DNA of 64,000 nt, taken from the NCBI GenBank assembly GCA_018436855.1, contig JAHDKO010000135.1, forward strand, positions 22,929 through 86,928, in the 5' to 3' direction. The position numbers and the translations under genes were made by a program. This document shows, one piece after another, positions 1 to 26,243 of the stretch. How positions within the stretch are numbered: the first letter of the stretch is position 1; the number at the start of each line of letters is the position of its first letter. The DNA is from Deltaproteobacteria bacterium. GTDB lineage: Bacteria; Desulfobacterota; Desulfomonilia; UBA1062. The notes under the pieces are model-generated. The model saw nothing but the letters and a program-made list of their open reading frames with translations, did no database searches and was not told the DNA's origin.

Positions 1-240
1 AGGTTGTGCTGGAGGTCTGAAGCGGCAGGAAAAGGATGGGGCGGCTCCCCGGTGCCCCAAATCACTGTGCCCGGGGCTTGGGCCGCTGAAGCACCGGTTT
101 TTCCCGCCCTTCTTCCCCTGCGGCCGGGATTTTTAAGCGGCTGCATGGTGCCTCCGCTCCGGTATCTCTGCCCATCGTGGATCGACCGACCGGGAGCCTG
201 CCCGTATCCCTCGTTCTGACAGCCCGGTTTCGGGTCAGGC

Positions 241-1329
241 TCAGTCCCCCTGATCGCCCTTGGTCCTGCCCATCTCCTTCCACAGGTCAAGGGAGCAGCG
301 CATGAAGTCGAAGTCGGTGGGCGGCGTGCGGCGGTCTTTCTCGTCCCTGATTTTCAAGGTGAGCGCTCCGCTCTCGCAGGTGGTGGTGCACAGGCCGCAC
401 CCGATGCACCGGTCGCGGTTGATTGTGACGGTCTTGTCCCCGTCGTCTGCGCTCAGGGCCTGCATGGGGCATCTCTTCAAGCACACGCCGCAGTGCCTGC
501 ACGAGCCTTTGTCATAGGTGAGGGCGTAGTTCGAGCTCTTGTAACGGGCCGGGTTGGGCAGGAGCTTCACCTGCCTCAAGATCGTGCAGCAGTCGGGGCA
601 GCAGTTGCAGATGCACTCGGTGTTGCGCTTGTTGCCGCCCGTCTGGTGGACGAGGCCCGCCGCCTCCGCATCATCGAGGATCTCCAGTGCCTCCTCCCGG
701 GTGATCATGCGGCCGAAGCCGATCTCGTCGAGCAGATACTCGGCATAGAAATCAAAGGCCAGGCACATGTCATGGGGTCTGTCGCACTTCATGCCCACAG
801 AGGCTGTCTGGAAATTGCAGGCGCACGGGAACACGCCGATGCGCTCCTTGGACATGATGATCTTCTTCACGTCGTCATAGGGCGCCACGGGGGTTTCGGG
901 CGTGGCCTCCATATGGATGGGCACGGTGCGCAGGGACCTGGTCCTGGGAATGAAGCCGGTCTGGAAGTACTCCTCGAAGAGCGCGGGCAGCTCCGGGTCC
1001 TTGACCTTGCGGAAGACCTGGTGCTCGAAAAAGCCATGCATGAAGGGGGCCGCGGCATAGAACTTTTCACCGTCACGGGTAGCGGGGAAGGTGTGGCCCT
1101 TTTCCGTCATCCGGGCGAGAATCCGGCCGGTCTCGTCCGCGCCTTTGCCCAGTCTTTCCGCGATCACGCTCACCGGCTCGGGTGTCCGGGTGAGGGCGAG
1201 GTATGCAGACGCCTCCTCTTCGGTGAAGAGCCTTTTCAGGATCTTCAGCTCCACGCCCGAGGCCGTTGCGATGAAGCCAACGGAATACTGGTCTATCCGA
1301 TCGCGGAGCCTCTCATATATGTCGCTCAT
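241..1329 (-). CDS. 4Fe-4S dicluster (ferredoxin-type) iron-sulfur protein
   Basis: The track ORF is 241..1446. I chose the internal ATG at 1329 (MSDIYERLRD...) because AGGAGGTC sits 7 nt upstream. The C-terminal half carries two CxxCxxCxxxCP motifs (CRHCGVCLKRCP, CIGCGLCTTTCE) plus extra Cys clusters (CICNCCPDCC). Family assignment beyond Fe-S binding protein is not possible by eye. Confidence 0.7.
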   Translation of the reverse strand: MSDIYERLRDRIDQYSVGFIATASGVELKILKRLFTEEEASAYLALTRTPEPVSVIAERLGKGADETGRILARMTEKGHTFPATRDGEKFYAAAPFMHGFFEHQVFRKVKDPELPALFEEYFQTGFIPRTRSLRTVPIHMEATPETPVAPYDDVKKIIMSKERIGVFPCACNFQTASVGMKCDRPHDMCLAFDFYAEYLLDEIGFGRMITREEALEILDDAEAAGLVHQTGGNKRNTECICNCCPDCCTILRQVKLLPNPARYKSSNYALTYDKGSCRHCGVCLKRCPMQALSADDGDKTVTINRDRCIGCGLCTTTCESGALTLKIRDEKDRRTPPTDFDFMRCSLDLWKEMGRTKGDQGD

Positions 1330-1939
1330 CAAGACCTCCTTCTTCACCACAGCGTATGGATTGCACACAGAGCCGTACGTATTCGTTCGCGCAAAAACCC
1401 CGACAGTCTCACCCGCCCGCCCGTGCAGGCGGCACGACAGCGCCACATGGGCAAGGCGCCGATTCTTTGCTGATTATGCCAATAAAAACCGGTTAAAGTC
1501 AATGCAGAATAGAACGACCGTTCGGTCTAATCCGGCAGGGTCCTCTCCTCCCCGTAAAACGCCTTTTCACCTCTAGCTGGGCATCATCCGGATAAAGACA
1601 TGCCTGGGCCGGAGACCGGCGCTCGACCAGAGAGCCGGAGTGCCCAGGGAAAGGCCTGTTTATAACCTGGCAGGGGTCCCTCTCTCCATTGGAAGAATCT
1701 CAAGGTAGCGTTACAGCATAGTAATATGGCTTGCTTGTATAGATGTTTCCAGGAGACCATCAGTTTTGAGATAAATCGGAAGGAGTATGATTTATTACAG
1801 ATACCTGGAATGTGATGGGATCTTTCATTTCTTATCGTTCTCGTTTATTTGTCCGATTCAAAGGTTAGCATGCGTCTTACTGGGACATTTATAATAAATG
1901 CTCGCTGAAAATAAAAAACGATGAATATTTCTGAACGTT

Positions 1940-2761
1940 TTGGTCACATATTCATCACTATGTACTAGGGGGTACAAATTGAAGCGAAGAGGTAGGTCGA
2001 TTATTGATGAATTGGCTATACTGCCGTGGTGGATCAATGTTATTCTGGCGTTTGTCATTTATTTCCTATTTAACTACTTGTTTCCCAATATTAATTTCCA
2101 AAATCCCTTTTACAAGGGCATCGCAATGGCATTACCCGGCCTCGCCCCTTTTGCCGTGGTGATTCTTCTCTTCATCGCTGCAGTATCAGCATATAACGCT
2201 TTGCGGGAAGGTGATTTGCTTGATCGCCAAATGGGTACCGCAACACTTCGTGAAATTGATTGGAAAGAGTTTGAAGAGTTGGTTGGTGAAGCATTCAGAA
2301 GAAAAGGCTACTCGGTAACCGAGACTGGTGGAGGAGGAGCAGACGGGGGAGTTGATCTTATTATTAGAAAAGGTGGAGAAAGACTCCTGGTACAGTGCAA
2401 GCATTGGAAAATGGATAAGGTCGGAGTCAAAGTGATTCGTGAACTCTATGGCGTAATAGCTGCAGAAGGTGCAACAGGTGGAGTGGTAATCTCATCAGGC
2501 ACATTCACCCAGGAGGCCAAAGACTTCACAAGGGGTAAGCCACTTGAGCTTATCGATGGCTCTTCATTACTGAAGATTATCGCAGAAGTGCAAAAAGCAC
2601 CAATAAATCCCATCAAGAAATCTATTGAAAATACTTGCCCTCTCTGTGGCGCTGAGATGGTGTTAAGGACAGCGAAAAAAGGTCCAAATGCAGGGGCAAA
2701 ATTCTGGGGATGCTCGACTTTCCCGAAATGTAAAGCTACTAAGCCATACACTGCAAAATAA
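1940..2761 (+). CDS. Membrane-anchored Mrr-like (type IV restriction endonuclease catalytic domain) protein with C-terminal topoisomerase-type C4 zinc ribbon
   Basis: Two hydrophobic helices near the N-terminus (ILPWWINVILAFVIYFLF, ALPGLAPFAVVILLFIAAV). Mrr_cat-like core (GGGGADGGVDLII..., LLVQCKHWK..., VIRELYGV..., GGVVISSGTFT...). C-terminus CPLCGAEMV...FWGCSTFPKC resembles the zf-C4 topoisomerase ribbon. The track start is TTG at 1940; the true start is uncertain (alternative TTG at 2012). Sits in a lower-GC region. Confidence 0.65.
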   Translation: MVTYSSLCTRGYKLKRRGRSIIDELAILPWWINVILAFVIYFLFNYLFPNINFQNPFYKGIAMALPGLAPFAVVILLFIAAVSAYNALREGDLLDRQMGTATLREIDWKEFEELVGEAFRRKGYSVTETGGGGADGGVDLIIRKGGERLLVQCKHWKMDKVGVKVIRELYGVIAAEGATGGVVISSGTFTQEAKDFTRGKPLELIDGSSLLKIIAEVQKAPINPIKKSIENTCPLCGAEMVLRTAKKGPNAGAKFWGCSTFPKCKATKPYTAK

Positions 2762-2800
2762 AGTTATCTGTATTAGTTGAAATCGGATATGCTTGTGGGC

Positions 2801-3460
2801 TTACTTAGCCCATAGCCCAGCCCCAGACTCTCTCGCCGATCTCTCGTATTGCCGGAACTGATCCATATACTTGAAAGGGAATCGCGTGTAAGCAAAACCG
2901 TACCCCTGCTTGATGATCTCGGCATTCAAGAACGTGCCGTCGGGAAGATAGACGTAGGCCAGCAGACGTCCGTACCTATCCCGTCTCTGGGTATCGTATT
3001 CCAAGCGCACCATTTCCCCTTCAACCATGTTCCTGGTGAATGCCGATGCCTCCTTACCATAGTGCTCTACAGGCTTGTTCGGGTGTACCGTCTCGGGCGT
3101 ATCAACTCCAACAAGACGGACTTTTTCACAGACACCATCAATGTCGACTACTATTGTATCCCCATCCACAACCCTGCAACAAAGATGATAATTTTTGGAA
3201 TAAATTAAAACTTGGCTTGTGTTTTGAGTATTATTTCCGGAAGCTGGAGGATTGCAGACCTTACATGGCACGTACCCCGCCTGCTGAGCCTCTTCGGGGC
3301 TATTGAATACAGTAAGATTTTCGGGCTTTATGTTCTCAGCACATCGACAGGTTGGATAATGATATTTATTCGATTCTGTAGAACCCCAAAACTCGGCGCT
3401 GATGGCAAAGGAAAGGAACGCCAGGAAAACAGCGGAAGCTGTAACCAGTTTTCTCATCAT
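2801..3460 (-). CDS. Secreted thermonuclease (SNase/micrococcal-nuclease fold) with N-terminal Ada-like Zn-binding domain
   Basis: Starts MMRKLVTASAVFLAFLSFAISA (signal peptide) with GGAGG 8 nt upstream. HYPTCRCAEN...GYVPCKVCNP matches the Ada metal-binding ribbon. The C-terminal part is SNase-like (VVDGDTIVV, VRLVGVDTPE, GRLLAYVYL, YGFAY...FRQYE). Confidence 0.8.
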   Translation of the reverse strand: MMRKLVTASAVFLAFLSFAISAEFWGSTESNKYHYPTCRCAENIKPENLTVFNSPEEAQQAGYVPCKVCNPPASGNNTQNTSQVLIYSKNYHLCCRVVDGDTIVVDIDGVCEKVRLVGVDTPETVHPNKPVEHYGKEASAFTRNMVEGEMVRLEYDTQRRDRYGRLLAYVYLPDGTFLNAEIIKQGYGFAYTRFPFKYMDQFRQYERSARESGAGLWAK

Positions 3461-3818
3461 TGGTCACCTCCTTACTTGGTACCGAGCCCGAAGATAACCA
3501 ATTGAGATTATTATATTAGCATCATAGGCAGGATAGGAGACAAATACAGGTATGGCCTTTCAATAACTGTATAACGCCTCCTTGATCTCTTTCAAGAGTG
3601 ACACTGCCATAGAAAAATGATTGAGATAATCGAAGCATACACTTTCCTGAGGTGTTCACCTCCTTATGAAATGTCAGCCTAAAAGCTGCTTTTTTTTCTC
3701 TTCTCCTGGAGTCGCTCTTTGAGTTTTCCCATCATAATCTTGATGGTATGACATCCTATGGGGGGGCGATTGTGACATAGGACTATCAGATCATTACTAT
3801 ATATGTGGAGGATTTCCG

Positions 3819-4057
3819 TGGCCCAGTGCTTTGCCCTGGTAGACTGCAACAACTTCTATGCATCCTGTGAGCGCATCTTTAATCTCCATCCAGTCCTCCT
3901 TGTTGAGCATCGGCGCCCCCTCCAGAGTTTCTTCTTTCGTCCCTCTGAAGGTACAACCCCTCGCTCAATTTGGGGGACTTGTATTCCGATACTTTTGGGA
4001 CTTTTAGCACCGGCAATGACACAGGATCAACGATCGATGGGGAAGAGGTGCGATTAA
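3819..4057 (+). pseudogene. umuC/rulB-like (Y-family DNA polymerase) N-terminal remnant
   Basis: GGAGG at 3808-3812 then GTG at 3819. The first ~25 aa, VAQCFALVDCNNFYASCERIFNLHP, closely match the conserved UmuC/MucB N-terminus (MFALCDVNAFYASCETVFRPDL). After about residue 30 the similarity is lost and the ORF stops at 79 aa. No umuD is present upstream. Confidence 0.45.
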
Positions 4058-4365
4058 CTTTGCCGCTACCGGATTCAAGCGCCCCTGGTGGATGCGCCAG
4101 GCGAGAAAGTCTTCATTATTTACCACCTCATGGACGGATCTGCCACGAGTGAGGGTGTGATTTCTTGCGGTAGTCTCATATCCTCACGATATAATAAGAG
4201 CAAGGGAACTGCATAAAATGCACTCAATAAATGAAGATGTAAATGCTAAGGCAACAACTTGCTACCATGCCACTGATTTTTTGTTTGCGAACTATCATAT
4301 TTTACCCTTTACAAATAAAGAATGGTGGCATATTATTTATATATAAATTCTGATAGGGGTTGTAT

Positions 4366-4752
4366 ATGAGGCGCAAGACTATGGCAATCCCGGATGCCGA
4401 TGCTCAGAGAAAAGTGTTGTCAAAGGCGGTAGTCAACACCGCTGACAAGCTAGAGTTCACAAAAAGCAAGCTATCCAAGGTGCTTGGGGTAAGCCCAGCG
4501 ACGGTGACTCACCTCTACGCACATTCCTACGAATTGTCACCTCTTCGCAAGGAATGGGATTTCGGCGTCCTTCTTGTAAGGCTTTACAGGTCCCTCGACG
4601 CGCTTGTTGGCGGCTCTCGTGAGGATGCCCTGGCGTGGATGAACAGCAAAAATAAGGGGCTTGCGGGGCAGAAACCCGCAGACCTCATAGAGAAAACGGA
4701 GGGCCTGGTAAGTGTCGTCCATTACTTGGACACCTACAGAGGTATCATCTAG
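4366..4752 (+). CDS. Xre-family antitoxin (HTH + DUF2384/MbcA-ParS-type) of an Xre-RES toxin-antitoxin pair
   Basis: N-terminal HTH-like segment (KLSKVLGVSPATVTHL). C-terminal segment typical of RES-associated antitoxins (REDALAWMNSKNKGLAGQKPADLIEKTEGLVSVVHYLD). AGGGG 6 nt upstream of the ATG at 4366; the track start is 4360 (TTG). A RES-domain ORF lies immediately downstream. Confidence 0.75.
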   Translation: MRRKTMAIPDADAQRKVLSKAVVNTADKLEFTKSKLSKVLGVSPATVTHLYAHSYELSPLRKEWDFGVLLVRLYRSLDALVGGSREDALAWMNSKNKGLAGQKPADLIEKTEGLVSVVHYLDTYRGII

Positions 4753-4783
4753 AGCACGCCAGTTTTCAGGAAGAATCTGGCGC

Positions 4784-5422
4784 ATGGTGGAATCACAGTT
4801 TGCATCGTCCACCCTGCGCCTGGTCGATAACATAAGAGAGCACGAGATCCTCGAAGACATTCTCGAAGCGAGTAAGCCCCCAATACCAGACGAAGCAAAA
4901 GGCCTGCACTACCTTCTTTTCAGTCCCTTCAGATATGCCCATACTGCCATGTTTGGCACACGGTTCAGAGCCAAAGGTGATCCCGGCGTATTTTATGGCG
5001 CGGAGACTCCGCGCACTGCTGCATGCGAGGTGGGGTACTGGCGATGGATGTTCGTACAGGACAGCGAAGGACTGAAACGCCTATCACCGTCCTCGTTCAC
5101 CGCTTTCAGTGTCCCCTTGGATGATCTCTCAGTAGACCTGAGAGAGAAGCCTTTCAATCGGGATGCAGTTCGTTGGCAACATCCAAGTGATTACTCGGCA
5201 ACCCAGGCATTTGCCAAGATAACCCGCCAGACCAAAGTGGGGGTCATCTTTTACAAATCGGTAAGGAGCCAGGTAGATAGCTTCTGCGTAGCCGTTCTGG
5301 ATCCCAAAGCCTTTGCCCAGAAAAGCCCGGATGCCAACACTCAAGCATGGGTGCTCACGATTGCAGACGAGGTTATCTGGAGCCGTAACCAGGGCGAGGA
5401 GTCCTTCTCTTTGACTTTTTGA
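4784..5422 (+). CDS. RES-domain toxin (putative NAD+-targeting toxin of Xre-RES TA pair)
   Basis: RES-like core FGTRFRAKGDPGVFYGAETPRTAACEVGYW (Arg...Glu) with a downstream Ser-containing segment. The track ORF 4712..5422 overlaps the antitoxin by 41 nt. I prefer the ATG at 4784, 32 nt after the antitoxin stop, but the start is uncertain. Confidence 0.7.
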   Translation: MVESQFASSTLRLVDNIREHEILEDILEASKPPIPDEAKGLHYLLFSPFRYAHTAMFGTRFRAKGDPGVFYGAETPRTAACEVGYWRWMFVQDSEGLKRLSPSSFTAFSVPLDDLSVDLREKPFNRDAVRWQHPSDYSATQAFAKITRQTKVGVIFYKSVRSQVDSFCVAVLDPKAFAQKSPDANTQAWVLTIADEVIWSRNQGEESFSLTF

Positions 5423-5437
5423 CCCTTTAATAAAATT

Positions 5438-5956
5438 ATGAGCATAAGAAAATCTATCGTTGATGTATTCCAGGACGAATATCTGCTGGCTAAAATACTT
5501 TCCCTGACAAAGATCAAGGGCATCGAAAGCGATTTGCGGTTCCTCTTAGAACGGTCCTTTTATTCACATGAAGGCAAAATCCCAGAGACAGAGGTCCTCG
5601 GGCGAACTGATTTAATGCTCACTCTAGAACCAGCGCAAATTATTGAGATAAAATGCTATCATGCTGTGATAACAACGAAAGATACACAAGATAGAAGAAG
5701 AAACGATCTCTTGAGCCTTTCAAAGCACACATCAACACCAACTAAAGTATTCCTTTATTTTGGCTTATACGGAAATGCGCAGCCTCCTGTTAAAAAGTCT
5801 CTCGACACCGCCGAAAGGATTGGTGAGATAAAGCAGGAGATAGAAAAGATACTCAATATTGCCAAGGCTGAGGATATCAAAATAATAAGCTGCGAGTATT
5901 ACGACAAAGTATTACCAGATCGCATTCTTTATGCGGCCTGGTTTTATGTGAATTGA
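5438..5956 (+). CDS. Hypothetical protein, possible PD-(D/E)xK-fold nuclease-like
   Basis: 172-aa ORF, low GC, 16 nt after the RES gene and on the same strand. Contains GRTDLMLTLEPAQIIEIK, a D-x12-E-x-K spacing compatible with a PD-(D/E)xK motif. I recognise no named family. Inference only. Confidence 0.45.
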   Translation: MSIRKSIVDVFQDEYLLAKILSLTKIKGIESDLRFLLERSFYSHEGKIPETEVLGRTDLMLTLEPAQIIEIKCYHAVITTKDTQDRRRNDLLSLSKHTSTPTKVFLYFGLYGNAQPPVKKSLDTAERIGEIKQEIEKILNIAKAEDIKIISCEYYDKVLPDRILYAAWFYVN

Positions 5957-6369
5957 GAAATACCTGCTGACTTATAATCTCTGTAATGAAACGTTCTTTT
6001 CAGCCCCATCTCGAAACTGATGATCTGCGGGAGGTATCTGAATCAATGGGCACTCCCCGGAGAATTTCAGATACCGGCACTGTATCTTGAAAATGGCTCG
6101 GTTCGACAGTCTTATCCGCGTGAAGTCATCCTAAGTGGAACAAGGCTGGAGGTTCATTTCGGTATGTGTCGGGTATCATAACGGAAAGAGACAAGCTCGA
6201 ATGACACCCTCTAACTCTCTTTTCCTCATCCACAATAAACCCGATTCGCCTTCTCTTTTCGCGAAGGAGGGATAATGAGATGGCGGATGGCATTGATTAT
6301 CATGGTGACGTCACGATCACGAGGGGCCAGCCGGCAGCATACCGGACAGGTGGATTGATATGTCCAGTT

Positions 6370-6972
6370 TCAACGCATCATCCCAGGCCCCATTGTGCCC
6401 ATCCCCATAACATGCTGAAACATGGTGGCATGCATCCTTGTCTGCAAGAGGATGAAGTCGAGCACATCCTTGCTGTTTTGATCTCCAGCGTTCTTTATGA
6501 GCCATTCGTAACGTGGTATGAGATCTGTTTCCAGATCATAGCCGACCTGATACGCCTCCCCAAGGCTTGAAGTCTGCTTCACCGCCGGCACCGGTGAATC
6601 CGAAGAGATTCCATATGCGGAGAACATCTTCTCTTCCCATGCGATATGATTATTCTCCTGCCAGATGATCATGTGATAGGGCATGTTGACGCCGTACTTG
6701 CTGCTGTCTGTTTCATATTGAGCCCTCGACAGCTTCTCCAGGGCATACACCTGGCGGAAATTCTTCACCCATTCCTCATTCTCCGGTGCCGGGAGCTTAT
6801 CCGGGATGGTCATCTGCCGACCCTGTCCACCCATCATGCCCCCGCACATCGGACAACGACCATTGTACCACTGATCGCCTCTGCCTCCCATCTGGGCAGA
6901 CAGATCCGTGAAGCAGAAAAAGGTCAGGATAAACGAGAAGCCGATAAGCCGCAGTAATGTCGAGCCTCTCAT
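6370..6972 (-). CDS. Secreted ferritin-like (DUF2202-like) protein with Met/Gly-rich termini
   Basis: Internal start MRGSTLLRLIGFSFILTFFCFTDLSAQ (signal peptide) with GGAGG 9 nt upstream. The longer track start at 7134 lacks an RBS. ExxH-type motifs (WQENNHIAW, TRMHATMFQH) suggest a ferritin-like four-helix bundle. Met/Gly-rich repeats MGGRGDQ, GMMGGQG, MGMGTMGPGMMR. Confidence 0.6.
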   Translation of the reverse strand: MRGSTLLRLIGFSFILTFFCFTDLSAQMGGRGDQWYNGRCPMCGGMMGGQGRQMTIPDKLPAPENEEWVKNFRQVYALEKLSRAQYETDSSKYGVNMPYHMIIWQENNHIAWEEKMFSAYGISSDSPVPAVKQTSSLGEAYQVGYDLETDLIPRYEWLIKNAGDQNSKDVLDFILLQTRMHATMFQHVMGMGTMGPGMMR

Positions 6973-7204
6973 TGGATTACCTCCTTTTTTTAAGAAAGTG
7001 TAATGGTCGCACACGATCAGACCATATACAAAAATAGTACGCTTACGGGGAATCATAGCAAGGCGGTAAAATAAGGGTATACAGCGTGAGGAACTATGTC
7101 GTGGAAGATTGCTTCGGCCTTGTTTTGGTATCATCCGCAGACGATAACTTTTGGAGCCGGGAAAAATCCGCCTTCATTGCAGGGATTGCCGCGCTGGATA
7201 GAGC

Positions 7205-9019
7205 TTATCCGCTGCCTTCGAACCGCCGGATCTCGTCGAGGAAGTACGGGCCGTAGCGCTCGATCTTGTGCTTTCCCACCCCGTGGATGCCGTGGAACTC
7301 GCTTTCGGTCCTGGGGAGAATTGCGGCCATCTCCGCCAGGGACACGTCGCTGAAGATGACAAAGGGCGGCACTCCTTCCCGGTCGGCAAGCTGCTTGCGA
7401 AGCGCGCGGAGCTTCTCGAAGAGCCCGGGGTCGTAATCGATGTCGCCTGCCTTGCGGCGGGCCGCCTTCGATGCGGATTTGAGCCCTGCCGCGGCCTTTA
7501 CGCGGGGCTCGGCCATGGTGATCGTCTGCTCCCCGCGAAGCAGGGGCCCGGCCGAGGAGGTGAGCTTGAGCACCGAATAGTCGCCCACGTCCTGCAGGAG
7601 GTATCCGTGGTGCACCAGATGGCGCAGCAGGGTTGACCAGTAGTCCTGGCTCTTGTCCGCGCCGATTCCATAGGTGGAGAGCCGGTCGTGGCGGAGGTTG
7701 GCCACGCGCTCCTTCTTCGAGCCTCGCAGCACGTCGATGACATGGCCCATGCCGAAGCGCTGCCCCACCCGGTATACGCACGACAGGGCCTTGCGGGCGT
7801 CCTCGGTCACGTCCATGACCTCGGGCGGGTCCAGGCACACGTCGCAGTTGCCGCAGTCCTCCTGCAGGCGCTCGCCGAAATATCCCAGCAGGATGCGCCG
7901 CCGGCAGCTCATGGCCTCGGCAAACCCCACCATGGCGTTCAGCTTGTGCAGCTCGATGCGCGCCCTTTCGGGGTTGCGCGACTTCTCGATGAGCCCCCGG
8001 GCAACGGCCACGTCGCCGTAGCTGAACATGAGCAGGGCCTCGGCCGCCAGGCCGTCGCGGCCCGCGCGGCCGGTCTCCTGGTAGTAGCACTCGATGTTCT
8101 TGGGGATGTCGTAGTGCACCACGAAGCGGACATCGGACTTGTCGATGCCCATGCCGAAGGCCACGGTGGCCACGATGATCCGGATCTCGTCGCGCAGGAA
8201 GTCGTCCTGCGTCTTTTTCCGCTCGTCCGCGGTGAGCCCGGCGTGGTAGGGCGCGGCCTCGAACCCGGCCTCGGCGAGCTTGCCCGCCACCTCGTCCACC
8301 CTTTTGCGGCTCAGGCAATAGACGATGCCCGCGTCTGTGGGCCGGGAGCTCAGAAACTCCGTGAGCTGTGCAAGAGGCTTGCGCTTTTCCACCACGGAAT
8401 ACCGGATGTTGGGACGGTCGAATCCCGAGACATAGCACCGGGCGTCCTTGAGGTCGAGGCGCTCCAGGATGTCCCGCCTGGTGTGGGGCTCTGCCGTGGC
8501 GGTGAGCGCGATTACCGGGATGTCCGGAAACATCCTTCTGAGCCGGCCCAGCTTCATGTACTCGGGCCGGAAATCGTGGCCCCACTGGGAGATGCAGTGG
8601 GCCTCGTCGATGGCGAACAGGGCGATGGGCACCTGGCGGATCCGCTCGATGAACCCGTCGCTCATCAGGCGCTCGGGCGCGAGGTAGAGCAGGTCGAGCT
8701 CCCGGTTGTGCAGCATGGACAGCACCTTCCTGGCCTCGGCGCTCCCGAGCGAGGAGTTGTAGAAGGCCGCCTTCACCCCGCAGGCCCGCAGAGCGTCAAC
8801 CTGGTCCTTCATCAGGGAGATGAGCGGCGAGACCACGATGCCCACGCCCTCGCGGTGCAGGGCCGGAAGCTGGAAACAGAGCGACTTCCCGCCGCCCGTG
8901 GGCATCAGGACAAAGGCGTTCTCGCCCTGGACGAGCCGTTCGATGATCTCCTGCTGATAAGGCCGGAACGACTCGTATCCAAAGACGGTCCGCAGACTTT
9001 CAAGAGGGGTGTCGTTCAT
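7205..9019 (-). CDS. recQ: ATP-dependent DNA helicase RecQ
   Basis: Start at MNDTPLESLRTVFGYESFRPYQ. Helicase motifs I (MPTGGGKS), II (DEAH) and VI (TGRAGRDG). RecQ Zn-binding region (CRRR...CGNCDVC). C-terminal HRDC-like region. The track ORF start (9106) is an N-terminal over-extension. Confidence 0.92.
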   Translation of the reverse strand: MNDTPLESLRTVFGYESFRPYQQEIIERLVQGENAFVLMPTGGGKSLCFQLPALHREGVGIVVSPLISLMKDQVDALRACGVKAAFYNSSLGSAEARKVLSMLHNRELDLLYLAPERLMSDGFIERIRQVPIALFAIDEAHCISQWGHDFRPEYMKLGRLRRMFPDIPVIALTATAEPHTRRDILERLDLKDARCYVSGFDRPNIRYSVVEKRKPLAQLTEFLSSRPTDAGIVYCLSRKRVDEVAGKLAEAGFEAAPYHAGLTADERKKTQDDFLRDEIRIIVATVAFGMGIDKSDVRFVVHYDIPKNIECYYQETGRAGRDGLAAEALLMFSYGDVAVARGLIEKSRNPERARIELHKLNAMVGFAEAMSCRRRILLGYFGERLQEDCGNCDVCLDPPEVMDVTEDARKALSCVYRVGQRFGMGHVIDVLRGSKKERVANLRHDRLSTYGIGADKSQDYWSTLLRHLVHHGYLLQDVGDYSVLKLTSSAGPLLRGEQTITMAEPRVKAAAGLKSASKAARRKAGDIDYDPGLFEKLRALRKQLADREGVPPFVIFSDVSLAEMAAILPRTESEFHGIHGVGKHKIERYGPYFLDEIRRFEGSG

Positions 9020-9444
9020 TGTCTCAAGCTTTTCAACCACCGGAAGTTTCCTGCTCCTGGTGAAGCAATCTCTGGGGTTTATCGAGTATTGAAGTTTCCC
9101 TACCACAAATTTCGAGCCGGGGAAAGGTCCTGATGGCAGTCAAGAGGTATGCCCGGGCACGCGCACGCACGGCGGGACATTGCATGGAACGGGCATGCGG
9201 CATGGGCGGAAAGCCTTGTATCAGCAGGCGGCAACGTTCGTGAGTGTGAAACGATCAGGAGGACGACATGGCGATCCATGGCCCGAACCCGGCGACCGAT
9301 TCGGCAATGGAGCCGGATTGCCCCGGGATGCGGAAATGCCTGCACAGGGAAGCCGGGGGAGAGGGGTGCAAAGGGTTTACGCTGTTTAAGGCACTCTGAG
9401 TCTCTGCCCCGGGAGGGAGGGGGAAAAAAAGCCCCGGTTCCTCA

Positions 9445-11127
9445 TCAGGCAAAGCCGAACGCCAGCACAAGGCCGGCCAGACCTGCGAACACTGCATAGA
9501 TCACGGTCGGCAGCACCATCCTGCGGAGGATCACGCCCTCCATGCCCGTCATGCCGATGACCCCGCAGACCGCGGCGATGTTCAGGATGGAGAGCATGTT
9601 GCCCAGGCCGCCGCCCACGTTCTGCATGGCGACCACCACGGCGGGCGCGACGCCCACCGATGCGGCGGCATCGTACTGCAGCACGCTGAACAGGATGTTC
9701 GACGAGGTGTTGCTGCCGGTCATGAACGCGCCGAGCGTGCCGATCCACGGGGCCACGAAGGGGATGGCCCCGCCCGCTCCGAGCGCCAGAACCCGCGAGA
9801 GGGCCTGCATCATCCCGGGCAGGTCCGCCCCGTTGGTGGCGGACTGGATCATCACCTGGGTCATGGATACGGCGATGACCAGCGTTATCGCGGGGGAGGT
9901 GATGTGCGACACCGTGTCCTTCCATGCATCCGCCATGGACCTGAGATCCATCCGGTGGATGAAGCCGGTCAGCACGGCAACCGGGATGAACGGGACAATG
10001 CCCGGCAGGTAGATATATCTGAGGGAAAACGAGAGGTCCTGGCCGAGGATATTCTCCACGTCGATGGTATAGCTTTGAAGGACCTCCACGAGCCCGAGCC
10101 CGGGCCAGCGCGTCACCAGGAGCACAAGCGCCACCAGGAGGTAGGGTGTCCACGCGAGCAGCACCGGCATAGTTTTCTCCGGTTTCCCGCTGTGGTATGT
10201 CTCAGCGCGGAGCCCGCCGTGCCACGCGTGCTCCCAGGAGGCGCGCCCAGGGAACATCCAGGCCTGCCGGGGCGTCAGCACGTTGTAGTGCGCCAGGATA
10301 AGGCCGACCCCGAGCACCACGAAGCCGGATGCGATGTCCGGCAGGGCCGGCCCGAAGAACCAGGCAGTCAGAAACTGGGTTGCTCCCGCAAGCCCGCCCA
10401 GGACCAGCGCAAACGGCGCCACGGGCAGCGTGCGCTTGAGGGCGCCTTTCAGGTTCCGCTCGTTCTCGGGGCCGAACCACAGGAGCAGGAGAAAGACGCC
10501 CAAGAGCCCCCAGAAAACCATGGCCGCCCCGGTCACGATGCCTGTCCAGCGCGTCACGTCACCGAGGAAGGACATGACGCTCGTGCCCGAGGGCAGCATC
10601 GCCTCGTCGATGACCGAGGCGACCCCGCCGATGATGGGCGTGCCCGCGGCCCCGAACGGCGGCTGGGTGGCGTCGAAGAAGAGGCCGAATATGGCGGCGG
10701 CCATGGGCGGGAACCCCAGGCCGATCAGGAGAGGGGCCGCGATCGCTGCCGGGGTGCCGAAACCGGCCGCCCCCTCGATGATGGTATTGAGGCCGAGCCC
10801 GATGAGCAGAAGCTGCACCCGCCGGTCGTCCGCGATATGCGTGAAGTGCCACTGGATCGTCGAAGCTGCGCCGCTTCCCTCGAGATAGTTCATGAGCAGG
10901 ATGGCGCCGAACACGATCAGGATGATCTCCAGGGCCTGCAGTGCGCCGTATACCGCGGCCGCGGCCCACCAGAGAGCATCCATCCTCCAGAGGAGGAGCC
11001 CCAGTGCGGATGCCAGGACCCATCCCGTGCCCATGCCCCTGGCCGCCGACCAGCGCAGCCCCACCATGAGCAGGAACACGGTCACGATGGGGATGCTCCC
11101 GACGAGTGCGAGGGTGAGGGGGTTCAT
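9445..11127 (-). CDS. L-lactate permease (LctP family)
   Basis: 560-aa polytopic membrane protein with LctP-family hallmarks (MNPLTLALVGSIPIV..., GFGTPAAIAAPLLIGLGF, TGSNTSSNILF). Confidence 0.88.
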   Translation of the reverse strand: MNPLTLALVGSIPIVTVFLLMVGLRWSAARGMGTGWVLASALGLLLWRMDALWWAAAAVYGALQALEIILIVFGAILLMNYLEGSGAASTIQWHFTHIADDRRVQLLLIGLGLNTIIEGAAGFGTPAAIAAPLLIGLGFPPMAAAIFGLFFDATQPPFGAAGTPIIGGVASVIDEAMLPSGTSVMSFLGDVTRWTGIVTGAAMVFWGLLGVFLLLLWFGPENERNLKGALKRTLPVAPFALVLGGLAGATQFLTAWFFGPALPDIASGFVVLGVGLILAHYNVLTPRQAWMFPGRASWEHAWHGGLRAETYHSGKPEKTMPVLLAWTPYLLVALVLLVTRWPGLGLVEVLQSYTIDVENILGQDLSFSLRYIYLPGIVPFIPVAVLTGFIHRMDLRSMADAWKDTVSHITSPAITLVIAVSMTQVMIQSATNGADLPGMMQALSRVLALGAGGAIPFVAPWIGTLGAFMTGSNTSSNILFSVLQYDAAASVGVAPAVVVAMQNVGGGLGNMLSILNIAAVCGVIGMTGMEGVILRRMVLPTVIYAVFAGLAGLVLAFGFA

Positions 11128-11473
11128 TCTTTTTCTCTCAGCTCCCTGTACTGCCGCAGTCCGTCACTTGCCGCCGGCCGGCAGAGCATGTCCGGAAACC
11201 TTGGGGCATCCCGGATAAGGGTCATACGACAACATCCGTACGACACCATGGCGAGCCTTCTTTCAACGAACTGCCGGACAGTGCCGGTGCCCTTTCATGG
11301 TGAGCTCGATCCGTGGGTTTTGCAGGCTTGGGCATCTGGGCATATAGACTCATGGTAAGCTCTCCCGGGCAAAAGCCAATGCCTAAAAAAGGCACGAACC
11401 GGGACTTGAGCCTGTTGAATATCAACCCCGCGCCGCTACCTTATATGGTATGGTGTTCAAACCCCGAGAGGAC

Positions 11474-13195
11474 ATGTCCATTGTTTTTTCCGGGCAGGCG
11501 GGCCAGGGGCTGCAGACGCTGGAAGCGCTCCTGACCAGGATGCTCAAGCGCTCGGGCTACAACGTGTTTTCCTACAGCGAATTCATGTCCCGCATCCGCG
11601 GGGGAAACAACTCGACCCAGGTCCGTGTATCCTCGCGCAGGGTATTTTCCTATACCAGGAGGATCGACCTCTTCGTGCCCCTGCACGAAAACGCCATGGA
11701 GAGGTTTCACGACAGGATCACGCAGGAGACCGTGATCCTGGGCGACAGGGCCTTTATCGAGGAACAATATCTCGACGGCCACCATCCCGTTCTGGAGGTT
11801 CCCATCAACGAGGTCGCCCGCGAAAAAGGGGGAGCCGTGTATGCCAACACGGTCCTTCTGGGAATCCTCGCCGGGCTCTTCTTCGTTGACAGCGACCTCA
11901 TGCACGAAGAGATCCGGATGATCCTCTCCGGCCTGGGCGAGGACCGGCTGCAAAAAAACCTGGATGCCTCGGATGAGGGGTACGAGCGGAGCAAGAAGCT
12001 GCTCAAGCCCGGGCAGGCCGCGGTGTCCATCGAGCGCACCGCCGAGGTCCGGGACGAGGTCCTCACCGACGGAATCAACGCCGTGGGCCTGGGAGGCCTG
12101 GCCGGCGGATGCACCTTCGTGTCCTCGTATCCCATGTCGCCGTCAACGGGCGTGCTGGTGTTCTTCACGAAAAAGGCCGAGTCGTCCGGCGTGGTGGTCG
12201 AGCAGGCCGAGGACGAGATCAGCGCGGTCAACATGGCCATCGGATCGTGGTACGCGGGCGGCAGGGCGCTCGTCACCACCTCGGGCGGGGGCTATGCCCT
12301 GATGGTCGAGGGCTTAAGCCTCGCCGGGTGCATCGAGTCGCCCCTGGTCATCCACCTGGGCCAGAGGCCCGGCCCAGCCACGGGCCTGCCGACCAGGACC
12401 GAGCAGGCAGACCTCCAGTTCGCCCTGTATTCGGGGCACGGGGAGTTCCCCCGGGCCATCCTCGCACCCGGCACCCATGAGCAGGGGTTTTCCCACACCA
12501 GGCACGCCTTTTATCTCGCCGACAAGTACCAGGTGCCCGTGTTCATCCTCACGGACCAGTTTTTCCTTGAGCGCAGGTACAACGTGCCTGATCTGGACAC
12601 GAGCAAGGTGTACGATCAGCGCTTCATCGTGCAGACCAGGGCGGACTACCGCCGCTATGCCCTCACGGAAAACGGCGTCTCCCCCCGGGGAATCCCGGGC
12701 TTCGGCGAGGGCAGGGTGCGCGCGGACAGCGACGAGCACGACGAGGACGGGTTCATCACCGAGGACTTCTCCACCAGGACCGCCATGGTGAACAAGCGGC
12801 TCAAAAAGCTCTCCGGCCTGCAAATGGAGGTGTTTCCTCCGCAGCTCTTCGGCCCGGAAGACTACCGCAACCTCGTGGTGTGCTGGGGGTCTTCGCTCCA
12901 CGCGGTGCAGGAGGGCCTGGACATGCTCGGCAGGGACGATACCGCAATTCTCCACTACTCGCAGGTCTACCCGCTTGCAGAGGTCACCGCAGAATACCTG
13001 GAGCGCGCGCACAAGAAGATCGTGGTCGAGAGCAACGCCACCGCCCAGTTCGCCCGGCTCGTCCGAAGCGAGACCGGGATCGCCTTCGACGGGGCCATCC
13101 TGAAGTACAGCGGCCTTCCCCTCATGCCCGAGGACGTGTGCGAAGGCCTGCATGAAAAACTGGGGAAAAAGGAGAGCACGCATGGGCGCCTATGA
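11474..13195 (+). CDS. korA: 2-oxoacid:ferredoxin oxidoreductase subunit alpha (fused gamma-alpha type)
   Basis: The N-terminal POR gamma-like domain begins [15 protein letters not shown] (ATG at 11474). Then POR_N/alpha domain ([22 protein letters not shown]). The downstream TPP-binding subunit overlaps in a classic korAB arrangement. Confidence 0.85.
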
Positions 13196-14042
13196 CTTCG
13201 ATCATGCCGTGGATATCGCCTGGTGTCCGGGCTGCGGGAATTTCCGCATCCTCGAATCGGTCAAGGACGCCCTGGACGAGCTTGAGCTCGACCCCGCAAA
13301 CGTGGTGTTCGTCTCGGGCATCGGGCAGGCAGCCAAGACGCCCCAGTATCTGAACGCGCACTACTTCAACGGCCTGCATGGCCGGACACTGCCGCCGGCA
13401 ACCGCGATCAAGGCATCGAACCCGGAGCTCATCGTGATTGCCGAGAGCGGGGACGGCGACATGTACGGGGAGGGCGGCAACCACTTCATGCACGCCATCA
13501 GGCGAAACCCCGACATCACGAACATCGTCCACAACAACATGGTCTATGCCCTCACCAAGGGCCAGGCATCGCCCACCACCAGGCAGGGCTTCGTCACCCC
13601 GGTGCAGGTCCACGGCGTCACCCAGGAGCCCTTCAACCCGGTCGCGGTGGCCATCGCGCTGGACGCCTCGTTCGTGGCGCGGGCCTTCGCGGGAGACGCG
13701 CGGCAGACCACGGACCTCATCAAAAAGGCGATCACCCACAAGGGCTATGCCCTGGTGGACATCTTCCAGCCCTGCGTCACCTACAACAAGGTGAACACCT
13801 ACGGGTGGTTCAAGCAGAACACCTACACCCTCGAGGAATCATACGACCCAACCGACCGGGAGGCGGCGTTCAGAAAGGCGACCGAACCCGGCAAGTTCCC
13901 CCTGGGCGTGCTCTACATCAAGGAGGGCAAGCCCACCTTCGAAGAGGGGCTCTCCCTCTACCGGCAGGATGCCAGGCCCCTGTACCAGCGGACCGTTGAC
14001 ATGGAAATGCTCAGAGGCCTGGTGGATTCCATGAGGACATAG
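13182..14042 (+). CDS. korB: 2-oxoacid:ferredoxin oxidoreductase subunit beta (TPP-binding)
   Basis: Start [21 protein letters not shown] with AAGGAG 8 nt upstream. TPP motif region ([19 protein letters not shown]). Overlaps the korA end by 14 nt. Confidence 0.85.
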
Positions 14043-14113
14043 GATCTTGGTCCGCGCTGCGCGCCCTGTCTCCTTGAGCGACCTTAAAAAAAGTCCTTGA
14101 TCGGGGCGATAAG

Positions 14114-14962
14114 TCAATCGATTGGCACGATCTCCACGTGGACATCCGAAGGCTGGGCAAAGTACATCCATGAAGAAACGAGCACGTCTGCACCCGCTTT
14201 CGCGTATCTCCCCGCGTTCGAATCATTGACCGCACCGGCGGCGATCAGGTAGATGTCCGGATTCAGCCGCCTGCATTTTTTTGCACAGGAGGCGAAGTCT
14301 TCGGGCGGCATCTTGTCGACCTGCACGGCATCCGCTCCAGACTCGGCCACCATGAGGGCCTGCTCTTCGGTATGGGCCTCCACGACGATCTTGCGCTCCT
14401 TGTTTTTTCGCCGTATCGCGGGAACTATCCCGGAAAGCCTCCCATAGCCGCCGGCAAGGACCAGATGCTCCCTGAAAATCAGGACGGTATCGGAGAGCCC
14501 CGTGCGGTGAGGCATCCCGCCTCCCGCCATGAGTGCTTTGAGCGCGATCTTTTTTATATAAGGCGGGTGCTTGCGCGTTCCGGCAACGATCACCGAGGGG
14601 TTTTCCTTCCTGGCGGCCTCGAGCATTCTGTTCGTGCGATCCGAGATCCCGGATGCGAACTCCACCAACGCCAGGCTTGTTCGCCAGACCATATGAACCG
14701 GTGCCGAATCGCCTTGCGCGTCGAGGATCACACCGCCGGGATTGACGTGGGTGCCTGAAGGCACATACGAGTGAACCTGCAGGTCCACCTTTTTAAACAG
14801 CCGTACGGCCTCTTCCGTACAGCAGACCACCATGGGGCTGCGAGCCCGGAAGGTTATCCTTGCCTTCTGTCCGGCCGTTCCCACCAGGAACGTGGTCAGA
14901 TCGCCCATCGGGGCGTCGTCTTCCAGAAGCTGGTCAATCTCGCTTTCGGTAAAATATATCAC
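14114..14962 (-). CDS. Nicotinate-nucleotide pyrophosphorylase family (NadC/ModD-like, type II PRTase)
   Basis: 282 aa. QPRTase signatures (AGTRKHPPY, GGGMPHRTGLSDTVLIFREH, AGADAVQVDKMPPE). I cannot distinguish NadC from ModD by eye. Confidence 0.75.
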   Translation of the reverse strand: MIYFTESEIDQLLEDDAPMGDLTTFLVGTAGQKARITFRARSPMVVCCTEEAVRLFKKVDLQVHSYVPSGTHVNPGGVILDAQGDSAPVHMVWRTSLALVEFASGISDRTNRMLEAARKENPSVIVAGTRKHPPYIKKIALKALMAGGGMPHRTGLSDTVLIFREHLVLAGGYGRLSGIVPAIRRKNKERKIVVEAHTEEQALMVAESGADAVQVDKMPPEDFASCAKKCRRLNPDIYLIAAGAVNDSNAGRYAKAGADVLVSSWMYFAQPSDVHVEIVPID

Positions 14963-15297
14963 TGTTCACTCTCCTGTCTGTACCAGCCGGCGGATCGAAG
15001 GGCAGGCCCGTGTTCCTTCCTGCCGTACCCGGCAGTTCCTGACACCTTTTCTTTCTTGCCGCTCGGCATCGGACTCCGAGAGGTTCTTACCCGGTATGCC
15101 GGTATATTCTTATATGAATCACCGGCATAGAGTCAACCGCATCGAGCCATCCGGCAAAGGCGCAGTACCCCGAATCCTCCCTCTCGGTCCGCCCGTTCCA
15201 CGACTGTTTGTGTTCTCCACCGGATAGCCCCTCTGCTTTGCGGCGGTGACAGTATCCGGGGGCCGAACCTACGGCTTCGTGCGATATGCGCGAGAGG

Positions 15298-16434
15298 CTA
15301 CAGAACGGCCAGGGCGTCGGCCATGGCCATTCCCGAACGGGTGGGGCGGACCCGGCCGTGGGCGATCTCGACAATGCCCAGGCGGCTCCACTCTTCGAGC
15401 TGCCGCCCGTTTTCCTTCATCAGATCCCGGCCGTAGAGTCGTGCATAGCGGTCCAGATCGATCCCGTCTCTGGTGCGGAGCCCCAGGAACAGGGCCTCCA
15501 TGGCCAGCTCTTCCAATCCCAGGTCTTCCCGTCCCTCGACGGGCCGCTCTCCGGTCCGGAGGTCGGCGAGGTAGCCCTGCAGGGGGCTCCGGTTCCACCA
15601 GCGGCGGGTGTCTTTGAATGAATGGGCCGCGGGGCCCAGGCCGAGGTAGGGGGTGTGGTCCCAGTATTTCCGGTTGTGCCGGGACGCCTTGTCCATGCCC
15701 GCGGCAAAGTTCGAGACCTCGTAGTGGATGTACCCCGCGTCTTCCAGGATCTCGGAGGTCCCTACGAAGAACTCTTGCGCCAGGTCTTCCGGGCGCCGGG
15801 CGTGCGTGCCCTGCCCGTATTTTCTGCCGAGCGGGGTGCCGGTCTTGAGCTCCAGCTCGTAGCAGGACAGGTGGGCGGGGTGCAATGCGATGGCCTGATC
15901 AAGGGACGCACGCCAGTCCTCGAGACTCTGATGGGGAAGGTGGTAGATCAGGTCGAGCCCGATATTGTCGAACCCGGCTGCCGCGGCCCCTTCCAGGGCA
16001 GAGAGTGCCTGCCTCCGGTCGTGCCTGCGGCCCAGGAACTTCAGCTCCCGGTCGTGAAACGACTGCACCCCGATGTTGACTCGGTTCACGCCTGCTCCCC
16101 AAAGCTTTCGCAGATCATCGCGGGTCAGGTCGGCGGGGTTGAGCTCCATGGTGATCTCGGCATTGCCGAGGATGGTGAAGGTGCCGCGGATCGTCTCAAG
16201 GAGGGCCTCCACCTGCTCGGGCGCCATCAGCGAGGGCGTGCCTCCGCCCAAATAGACCGTGTCGAAGACGGTGAACTCTTCCCGGTAGAGGGCCGCCTCT
16301 CCGGACAGTGCCTCCAGAAACGCGGGGACGAGCGAGGTCTCGGTGACGGAATAGAAGTCGCAGTACCCGCACTTGCTCCGGCAGAAGGGGAAATGGATGT
16401 AGAGCCCGGGGGCCAGTGCCTTGCCTGCGGTCAT
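15298..16434 (-). CDS. hemW: Radical SAM heme chaperone HemW (HemN-like, coproporphyrinogen III oxidase family)
   Basis: N-terminal YIHFPFCRSKCGYCDF (CxxxCxxC radical SAM) and GGGTPS motif. Its start overlaps the lepA stop by 4 nt (ATGA), the conserved lepA-hemW coupling. Confidence 0.85.
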   Translation of the reverse strand: MTAGKALAPGLYIHFPFCRSKCGYCDFYSVTETSLVPAFLEALSGEAALYREEFTVFDTVYLGGGTPSLMAPEQVEALLETIRGTFTILGNAEITMELNPADLTRDDLRKLWGAGVNRVNIGVQSFHDRELKFLGRRHDRRQALSALEGAAAAGFDNIGLDLIYHLPHQSLEDWRASLDQAIALHPAHLSCYELELKTGTPLGRKYGQGTHARRPEDLAQEFFVGTSEILEDAGYIHYEVSNFAAGMDKASRHNRKYWDHTPYLGLGPAAHSFKDTRRWWNRSPLQGYLADLRTGERPVEGREDLGLEELAMEALFLGLRTRDGIDLDRYARLYGRDLMKENGRQLEEWSRLGIVEIAHGRVRPTRSGMAMADALAVL

Positions 16435-19605: not shown

Positions 19606-19869
19606 TCTTTCCGGAGAGACAGGCGCTCTTTTGCAGACATCTGCCGGTTCCGCCCCCGGCAGACGAGCGCCCGGAATCAATGGTATGGACCCTTGAAGGG
19701 CAAGCCCTTCGACCCGGCTTCAAACTGCAAGCAGCAGAGGTTGTGACCCTTTCCCGTCCTTGAAAAATATGAATCCTCCTTCTCGCTTCTCCACCCTGGA
19801 CCTCATGTCCCTGTTGATCCCTTTTGTGAAACAACCGATAAAATGAATATATCCGGGAGGTTTCCTGCG

Positions 19870-21102: not shown

Positions 21103-21138
21103 ATATCGGGGACGGGTTCACATTTCGGCTTTTCCCTG
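21101..21138 (+). repeat. ~38-bp repeat element A, copy 1 (just after amidohydrolase stop)
   Basis: aaatatcggggacgggttcacatttcggcttttccctg. A second copy at 25508-25545 (aaatatcggggacgggttcacatttcacctttcccctg) has 34/38 identities. Confidence 0.7.
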
Positions 21139-21220
21139 GCTATACCACATTGCAGCTTGTGCTGTGAGTCGGCCACTGTTCACGCTCACCGTTCACCACT
21201 ACCACAAGGAGGCCTTCCTT

Positions 21221-21370
21221 GAATCCTCCTTCTTAGTCCGCATAGTGAAGTGCTTTGAAGGTGGGGTCGCATTCCTGTTCAAGCTTTTAGGCTTGAAGTA
21301 GGGTCCAGGGCTTGCCGTTGAAGGTCCATACCATTGAATGGGCTACCAGAAGTAAGCTGCCGGATATGAA
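21221..21370 (+). repeat. ~150-bp intergenic repeat element B, copy 1 (upstream of tetR)
   Basis: gaatcctccttcttagtccgcatagtgaagtgctttgaaggtggggtcgcattcctgttcaagc...gggcttgccgttgaaggtccataccattgaatgg...ggatatgaa. About 80% identical to copy 2 over the aligned length, by eye. Confidence 0.75.
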
Positions 21371-21493
21371 CTCTACAAGAGAATCAACCTTTGCTGCGTG
21401 GATGCATCAGACATCTCAAGGCTGGATGATGGGCGGTGGTGAAAAGGCAATCCAGGTATTGACTAGAATAATATTCTAGCATATAATTCTATT

Positions 21494-22111: not shown

Positions 22112-22124
22112 GACAGACGGTTTG

Positions 22125-26233: not shown

Positions 26234-26243
26234 ATCTCAGCTG

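Follow-up and report, generated by a model that had tools for sequence, protein, structure and literature searches.

We have identified an accessory island of ~5.6 kb between a gene for a 4Fe-4S dicluster protein (the Fe-S gene) and recQ in a 64-kb window, that is, the whole stretch of contig JAHDKO010000135.1 (assembly GCA_018436855.1) that was analysed. With a probability of roughly 70%, we regard it as a strain- or species-level island in a variable recQ/Fe-S hotspot of a Desulfomonilia or 'Candidatus Phosphitivorax'-like deltaproteobacterium, put together by accretion from at least five modules that circulate independently of one another. The first would be a membrane-anchored Mrr_cat/Zn-ribbon protein, the second a secreted staphylococcal-type nuclease (SNase), the third an internally deleted umuC, the fourth an Xre-RES pair followed by a rare orphan gene with an E-D-ExK motif and the fifth a ferritin-like, probably metal-related, secreted protein. 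The island would take the place where relatives hold MarR with an acyl-CoA dehydrogenase or VapBC, without mobility machinery of its own and without being one working machine; most likely, the two nucleases and the orphan act independently.

An earlier sequence-only reading of this DNA had pointed to a lower-GC island at 1500–6300, and the profiles of GC, of GC at third codon positions (GC3) and of tetranucleotides bear this out. The block between the Fe-S gene and recQ has a GC content of 0.469 versus 0.618 in the rest of the window. In 500-nt windows GC falls from 0.62–0.69 to 0.40–0.53 across ~1470–7200, and in the 1-kb profile this is the deepest and longest GC dip of the whole window. At 2001–7500 the tetranucleotide profile departs most from the backbone, with a distance of 0.57 versus 0.10–0.20 elsewhere. 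GC3 is 0.86 in the Fe-S gene and 0.89 in recQ, and it ranges from 0.41 to 0.66 in the six island genes (Mrr-like 0.41, SNase 0.51, Xre 0.63, RES 0.56, orphan 0.42 and ferritin-like 0.66). For comparison, four close relatives were taken from a RecQ scan of representative genomes: L001 (metagenome-assembled genome, MAG, SM3-B3m), L002, L003 ('Phox-21', of a phosphite oxidiser lineage) and L004 (Desulfomonilia). Alignment with L001 sets the left edge at ~1536 and moves the right edge outwards to ~7097; the ferritin-like gene, which had been taken as a flank, is absent from L001 and lies within the island. The island genes were identified with Pfam, NCBIfam and PADLOC profiles, and the features, in window positions, are the following.

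1536–7097 (approximate edges), no strand: whole accessory island, the segment without counterpart in L001 (blastn and MAFFT junctions)
241–1446, minus strand: left backbone flank, 4Fe-4S dicluster protein gene (Pfam Fer4 families), kept in L001
7205–9106, minus strand: right backbone flank, recQ (Pfam DEAD, Helicase_C, RecQ_Zn_bind, RQC and HRDC), kept in relatives
1979–2761, plus strand: membrane-anchored Mrr-like protein with two transmembrane (TM) helices, Mrr_cat (D...QxK) and a C-terminal C4 zinc ribbon (Pfam, hydropathy)
2801–3460, minus strand: staphylococcal-type nuclease, predicted to be secreted (N-terminal signal peptide), that also carries an Ada-type 4-Cys zinc domain (Pfam, hydropathy)
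3818–3883, plus strand: 5′ relic of a umuC pseudogene, with ribosome-binding site (RBS), GTG start and ~22 codons (NCBIfam UmuC PRK03609)
3884–4020, minus strand: filler of ~140 bp between the umuC relics, candidate IS21-like element end (sequence reading)
4021–4154, plus strand: 3′ relic of the umuC pseudogene, with C-terminal DUF4113 domain and stop codon (Pfam six-frame scan)
4308–4336, plus strand: candidate sigma-70-like promoter, TTTACA-17-TATTAT, ahead of the Xre-RES operon (consensus scan 10/12, a pattern match only)
4381–4752, plus strand: Xre/ParS/MbcA-type antitoxin, alternative TTG start at 4360 (Pfam; 123-aa call in sister assemblies)
4712–5422, plus strand: RES-domain toxin, its start overlapping the antitoxin gene (Pfam RES 3e-31)
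5438–5956, plus strand: orphan 172-aa protein, candidate PD-(D/E)xK-like enzyme (alignment, AlphaFold2 model)
6370–6972, minus strand: predicted secreted ferritin/rubrerythrin-like protein with Met/Gly-rich ends (weak Pfam Rubrerythrin match, 0.0019), part of the island and not of the backbone

At the same site the relatives carry other genes. L001, the closest other genome, with a RecQ of 96% amino acid identity, holds both the Fe-S gene (window 238–1535, 90.8% nucleotide identity by blastn) and recQ (7098–9172, 91.5%), and its recQ–Fe-S interval is 1.7 kb long versus 5.6 kb here and encodes an acyl-CoA dehydrogenase and MarR. In L003 this interval holds a VapB/VapC-like pair and MarR, and in L004 a radical-SAM gene follows recQ. 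Homologues of MarR or of the acyl-CoA dehydrogenase were not found anywhere in the 64-kb window. Since the cargo differs between relatives, the recQ/Fe-S interval is a variable hotspot; to our knowledge, it has not been described so far as a hotspot of this Desulfomonilia lineage. The island itself was found only in near-identical assemblies (at least 99.4%). Thus, the synteny comparison that the sequence-only reading called for revealed no conserved block of native composition, but flanks of ~91% in L001 and different cargo in L001 and L003, and the foreign, accessory nature of the island is supported. The site resembles genomic islets and regions of genomic plasticity in its conserved flanks, its relative-specific cargo and its atypical GC and GC3, as well as in its toxin-antitoxin and nuclease genes and insertion sequence (IS) traffic; it differs from them in that no tRNA, integrase or attachment site (att) was detected for the island.

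The island is not an assembly artefact. Exact-protein look-ups recovered the same arrangement in MAG GCA_018435705.1, in four Logan runs and in ENA assemblies, and both island junctions are spanned by independent assemblies from at least five samples at 99.4–100% identity; L096 corresponds to window positions 1–3858 at 100%, L095 to 1–3582 at 99.9%, L081 to 3577–15954 at 99.4% and L082 to 3993–15956 at 99.8%. Among near-identical assemblies the island differs by 2–3 bases in 5.5 kb, and parts of the backbone differ more.

It is also worth mentioning that the sister MAG GCA_018435705.1 carries an insertion at ~3579–3582, which places it 119 bp ahead of the start of the SNase gene. The two MAG contigs each break off after 141 bp of foreign sequence (L081:1–141 and L095:1–141), the ends of which, CCCTCTGTGCCAATGAGAGTGAGACACTTTTC... 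and ...GAAAGTGTCTCATCATCATTGACAAGTTCCG, are sub-terminal imperfect inverted repeats, and the contigs share a 3-bp overlap (CCT). The insertion is probably an IS, and this polymorphism at ~3580 means that mobile DNA is still landing in the island.

The view of the island as a mosaic rests on the gene-to-gene differences in GC3 and on the homologues of each gene, which sit in unrelated contexts and never together. No second island gene was present at any fetched homologue-bearing locus, a distant SNase near the Mrr-like gene in 2 loci excepted. Whole-island DNA gave no match against plasmids and phages, and viral-contig scans with the Mrr-like, orphan and RES proteins returned only one zinc-ribbon-level match. 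The order in which the pieces would have come together is something we infer. As the sequence-only reading had stated, and scans confirm, integrase, tRNA and att repeats are missing: there is no tRNA in the 64-kb window, no integrase or recombinase, intact or as a pseudogene, in the ORFs, the six-frame spacer scans or the listed neighbouring genes, and no repeat pair bracketing 1536 and 7097. Tandem repeats were likewise not found, and Rfam yielded no match even at E ≤1 and no non-coding RNA in the spacers.

The sequence-only reading had seen the N-terminal fragment of umuC and taken it as a mere truncation; the N-terminal relic is real, but the C-terminal DUF4113 domain is kept too. In the 5′ relic (MAQCFALVDCNNFYASCERIFN), 18 residues (FALVDCNNFYASCERIFN) align to positions 2–19 of UmuC PRK03609 with an E-value of 0.0027. 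DUF4113 was matched at 4023–4151 (Pfam E 1.4e-14, profile positions 9–51 of 51) in a whole-frame scan of the 3461–4380 spacer and was seen only there, the small ORFs of the 3461–4365 spacer having no individual Pfam match. Passages of two papers describe this domain as the C-terminal domain of UmuC-type polymerases (PMC6511836, PMC4542609). The two relics lie in different plus-strand frames and amount to ~22 N-terminal codons and 43 C-terminal DUF4113 codons; the full-length IMS polymerase core (~420 aa) is missing. Because the N-terminus and the C-terminal DUF4113 both remain, umuC is, judging from its sequence, internally gutted, with ~0.9 kb of its middle lost. Frame translations upstream of the relic contained no umuD remnant.

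A search with the joined relics returned a single protein, P0024, a longer 3′ umuC relic from another metagenome (L098/L099). Window positions 4021–4184 match its DNA at 89.6% nucleotide identity with a sharp stop at both ends. The left edge of this match therefore marks the umuC deletion junction; on the right, homology stops at 4184, 30 bp past the umuC stop codon, so the DNA beyond it, with Xre-RES, is a separate piece. The related relic abuts other cargo, and therefore related umuC genes were broken independently. In L098:1–9690 the 5′-truncated umuC relic lies beside a cluster of SNF2 helicase/NOV_C, SLFN_AlbA_2/HATPase_c_4, DUF1156, DUF8426 and DUF499 genes, which looks like defence cargo inserted into umuC. 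It has been reported that umuC, rulB and rumB genes are prone to interruption by mobile DNA (PMC4542609), and the broken umuC here fits this pattern. A 3-bp GAT target has been published for such interruptions. As in rulB of pWW0, with its integron-like elements, and rumB of SXT/R391 integrative and conjugative elements (ICEs), the 5′ and 3′ ends of a Y-family polymerase gene are kept with foreign DNA between or beside them. Unlike those cases, there is neither a XerC/D-like recombinase nor an upstream umuD/rulA here, the break falls at ~codon 22 and only ~140 bp of filler is left.

This filler, at 3884–4020, contains a single end-like stretch, which on the minus strand consists of a TGT terminus, a pair of AAGTCCC motifs, an RBS and the reading MLNKEDWMEIK and resembles the IstA start MEDWVTIRNLK (11 IstA-like codons) and the AGTCC-rich ends of an IS21-family copy (L087). 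No matching copy of the filler was found in the databases, and its assignment as the left end of an IS21-family element is speculative. Logan contigs from four runs start or end exactly at 3858 and 3993, bracketing the umuC deletion junction; the break at 3993 fits a repeat ending at ~4022 with k=31, and the one at 3858 is 19 nt short of the junction. An IS21-like relic might explain these contig breaks.

With regard to the nuclease genes, the membrane-anchored Mrr-like protein and the secreted SNase proposed from the sequence were both recovered by profile. The Mrr-like protein matches Pfam Mrr_cat (E 1.8e-34) and Zn_ribbon_Top1 (7.9e-12) behind two N-terminal hydrophobic helices. It has an alternative upstream TTG start at 1940, and its 260-aa product is called identically in another assembly. 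Residues D126, Q139 and K141 are invariant in 21 homologues. The protein shares with Mrr-type (type IV) restriction endonucleases the Mrr_cat domain and its conserved D...QxK core; in place of the N-terminal winged-helix DNA-recognition domain of Mrr it has the two TM helices, a topoisomerase-type zinc ribbon is added at the C-terminus, and the PADLOC mREase_IV models are matched at domain level only. Full-length homologues occur on 151 plasmids, many of them conjugative, and the one on pALIDE01 adjoins MazEF and a methyltransferase/helicase. We found neither a solved homologue by sequence nor, in the literature, a characterised member of this plasmid-rich 2TM/Mrr_cat/Zn-ribbon family.

The SNase gene matches Pfam SNase (5.3e-29) and Ada_Zn_binding (4.9e-8), as well as NCBIfam NucI at 1.2e-37, which is below the model cut-off. 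Its signal-peptide-like hydrophobic N-terminus makes the protein appear exported. Homologues are found on 684 plasmids. The gene is convergent with the Mrr-like gene, and a conserved convergent pair of the two was considered and rejected: 80 metagenome loci with Mrr-like homologues, 43 of them near-full-length, showed no recurring neighbour, and an SNase (31% identical) was near the Mrr-like homologue at 2 of the 43 near-full-length loci and at neither of two plasmid loci. Apart from the distant SNase in those 2 loci, no other island gene stood beside the Mrr-like homologues in the 80 metagenome loci.

The Xre-RES pair, as judged from its genes, is intact and is the only complete system in the island. 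In agreement with the sequence-only reading, it is recognised by Pfam matches above the gathering cut-offs for both proteins, by the same-strand gene overlap at 4712–4752 and by the R/E/S motifs of the toxin. The antitoxin matches Xre-like-HTH (5e-10) and Xre_MbcA_ParS_C (8e-13) in Pfam and Xre_ParS_antitoxin in NCBIfam (5e-13, below the model cut-off). In the toxin, GTRF (82), ACEV (104) and YKSVRS (181) align with GSRF, MAES and YRSAR of chain 8qnl_C, its closest solved chain (E 1e-28). This alignment begins at residue 6 and so supports the long RES start. The long-start protein is absent from the exact-match index because other assemblies call a shorter product of 212 aa.

Entry 8QNL is cited in the P. 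aeruginosa NatR-NatT paper, a passage of which has the toxin depleting NAD and NADP (PMC11535050). The pair described here resembles NatR-NatT, MbcTA, ParST and the P. putida Xre-RES in having the antitoxin gene before the toxin gene, with overlapping genes, an Xre-like-HTH plus a toxin-binding ParS_C domain, and the RES R/E/S motifs; it differs from NatR-NatT and other Xre-RES pairs in being only ~35–45% identical. NatRT is described in that passage as belonging to the core genome (PMC11535050), whereas the Xre-RES pair here is island cargo. In its chemistry the RES toxin could be a NADase, an NAD+ phosphorylase or an ADP-ribosyltransferase. By homology with NatT, it would degrade NAD(P)+ when free; binding by the Xre antitoxin would prevent this, and the antitoxin would also repress the operon. 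The pair would mainly stabilise the island by addiction; abortive infection of phages is possible as well.

The orphan behind the toxin gene is very rare: a set of 5.8e9 proteins contained 8 homologues of it, and one of 1.84e9 contained 16 cluster representatives. Its invariant residues are E30, E52, D58, E70-x-K72 and D90 in 21 homologues. Hence the D-x12-ExK motif of the sequence-only reading is right in its D and its ExK and wrong in its spacing, the motif being D58-x11-E70-x-K72 with an invariant E52. The protein has no Pfam, NCBIfam, PADLOC, PHROG or PDB-sequence match. Its AlphaFold2 model (mean confidence pLDDT 88, pTM 0.85) has the order alpha-beta-beta-beta-alpha-beta, and hhalign sets D58 and E70-x-K72 on the D and QxK of Mrr_cat with a probability of 0.2%. 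Foldseek with the model returned nothing below E 1e-3 in PDB or BFVD (TM ≤0.4), the weak hints being Cas4 SSO0001 (E 0.023) and a haloviral 'PD-(D/E)XK nuclease' (E 0.011). The orphan shares with the PD-(D/E)xK superfamily an invariant E...D-x11-ExK and, in a confident model, the order of the core elements, but has no significant sequence, profile or fold match to it; on this model a nuclease is plausible.

A 58%-identical homologue of the orphan lies in a plasmid-like region with a resolvase, MazE, a KAP NTPase, ParA, IS21 and an MmeI-type restriction-modification gene, with no RES beside it, and further homologues differ again in their surroundings, one lying in an archaeal-looking context. 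The orphan as a conserved third component of Xre-RES was rejected on account of these other neighbours. Perhaps the orphan founds a very rare new family of PD-(D/E)xK-like nucleases, present in bacteria and apparently in archaea, that travels as solitary mobile cargo and whose member here may be co-transcribed with RES and add a further effector to it. The 2TM/Mrr_cat/Zn-ribbon proteins, for their part, could be nucleases tethered to the membrane that act on incoming DNA. We put these ideas forward tentatively and consider them doubtful.

As for the ferritin-like gene, 30 homologues were found. An 84%-identical one stands with DUF305 next to a transposase of the Tn3 family; this arrangement recurs across many samples, in at least 24 contigs (L187–L191, about 650–5100), and the two genes probably travel together as metal-related cargo of a transposon. 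Another homologue, 63% identical, comes after a P-type ATPase gene and has a Csp gene nearby. The homologous loci share only the coding sequence with the window, at 79% nucleotide identity. The Tn3/DUF305 and P-type ATPase/Csp contexts, together with the Met/Gly-rich ends, hint at a role with metal, perhaps copper.

How such a block came to lie at this site can be read in other ways. One is the reading favoured by the sequence-only reading, namely the decayed remnant of a single ICE or plasmid segment that arrived in one piece and from which deletions later removed the integrase, the att sites and the transfer genes. The internally deleted umuC with its possible IS-end relic would suit this, as umuC/rulB/rumB genes of plasmids and ICEs are known insertion hotspots (PMC4542609); every gene family of the block is common on plasmids or transposons, and the missing neighbouring MarR fits a deletion during integration. 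On the other hand, integrase, relaxase, tRNA and direct repeats are absent from the block and from the 10 kb around it, GC3 is heterogeneous between the genes, the umuC-relic homology that ends 30 bp past the stop sets the Xre-RES side apart, and no locus or plasmid with two island genes was found. We therefore regard a single element as unlikely. Even so, several observations weigh against accretion from independent modules. The homologues elsewhere are 40–84% identical, which leaves room for a joint arrival from an unsampled donor, and the near-absence of polymorphism in the population fits one recent acquisition of a ready-assembled block, as it would fit a single element. There is no mobility gene or att site to account for the arrival of the pieces. 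The synteny rests on 3–4 relatives, all of them MAG contigs, and the MarR and Fe-S genes of L003 are themselves low in GC, so that the 'ancestral' state at the site is uncertain.

A functional defence island is a different proposal, in which the Mrr-like nuclease on the cytoplasmic face, the E-D-ExK protein and abortive infection by Xre-RES would act jointly against phage or plasmid DNA, while the SNase would degrade released or extracellular DNA; it extends the anti-foreign-DNA module of three nucleases suggested by the sequence-only reading. PADLOC does match Mrr_cat (type IV restriction endonucleases, ZorD and PDC-S02) and the SNase (candidate C3a212, 'SNc+LTD'), RES-Xre papers name phage defence among general toxin-antitoxin functions, and relatives of island genes adjoin restriction-modification or defence genes elsewhere. 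Yet these are domain-level matches: no complete PADLOC system was found with the PADLOC-DB v2 models (system-calling logic not run), and RES, Xre, the orphan and the ferritin-like protein matched no PADLOC model. Moreover, the DNA-recognition domain at the N-terminus of true Mrr is missing from the Mrr-like protein, which has no conserved partner gene either, the SNase is apparently exported and convergent rather than co-oriented with the Mrr-like gene, the gene pairings, that of Mrr-like and SNase included, are not conserved, and the orphan is no more than a candidate for a nuclease fold. The three-nuclease module was not borne out, and joint defence appears quite improbable to us. Least credible of all is that the block is native but of unusual composition, or that a metagenome bin was mis-assembled into a chimera. 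The source is apparently an uncultured lineage known from MAGs, and reduced GC is also seen in some of the variable segments nearby, but the junctions recur in the assemblies of at least five samples at 99.4–100%, the block is absent from the site in a relative with ~91% flanks, and the GC3 gap is 0.2–0.45. The accretion of independent modules at a variable site is thus the account that we prefer.

Further variable segments lie around the island. Positions 9172–9445 and 14046–15297 have no counterpart in L001. L001 does share the lactate-permease region at 9445–11409, which L002 and L003 lack. To the left of the Fe-S gene, outside the window but close to its start, L095:3704–5135 encodes a HIRAN-domain protein and a WYL/WCX regulator; L001 has the HIRAN gene as well. 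Within 12500–14500 fall 53 of the 74 differences between the window and the sister MAG, which suggests a recombination tract in the backbone. A second compositional anomaly extends over 21000–26500 (GC down to 0.42, tetranucleotide distance 0.36–0.39) and contains a TetR regulator, an unknown 316-aa ORF, a DUF6125 protein and an ABC substrate-binding protein, with an amidohydrolase gene just upstream (19843–21102) and no mobility genes seen. A third, milder GC dip (0.54–0.56) lies at 61000–63000.

Finally, the island itself is ordinary and was apparently acquired recently; novelty is confined to the hotspot, in a lineage of which little is known, to a umuC emptied from within and to two as yet uncharacterised families of proteins. 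The outcome is a clean negative: what looked like a suggestive grouping of three putative nucleases, a toxin-antitoxin pair and a broken umuC is a commonplace patchwork of mobilome cargo at a chromosomal hotspot, and neither a new defence system nor an integrative element that could be dated. The island marks the recQ/Fe-S interval as a plasticity hotspot in a poorly known Desulfomonilia/Phosphitivorax lineage. Moreover, the gutted umuC, together with the related relic beside a defence cluster, fits the notion of Y-family polymerase genes as preferred landing sites of mobile DNA. Two uncharacterised families are flagged as well: the E-D-ExK orphan, and the membrane-anchored Mrr_cat/Zn-ribbon proteins that are common on conjugative plasmids.

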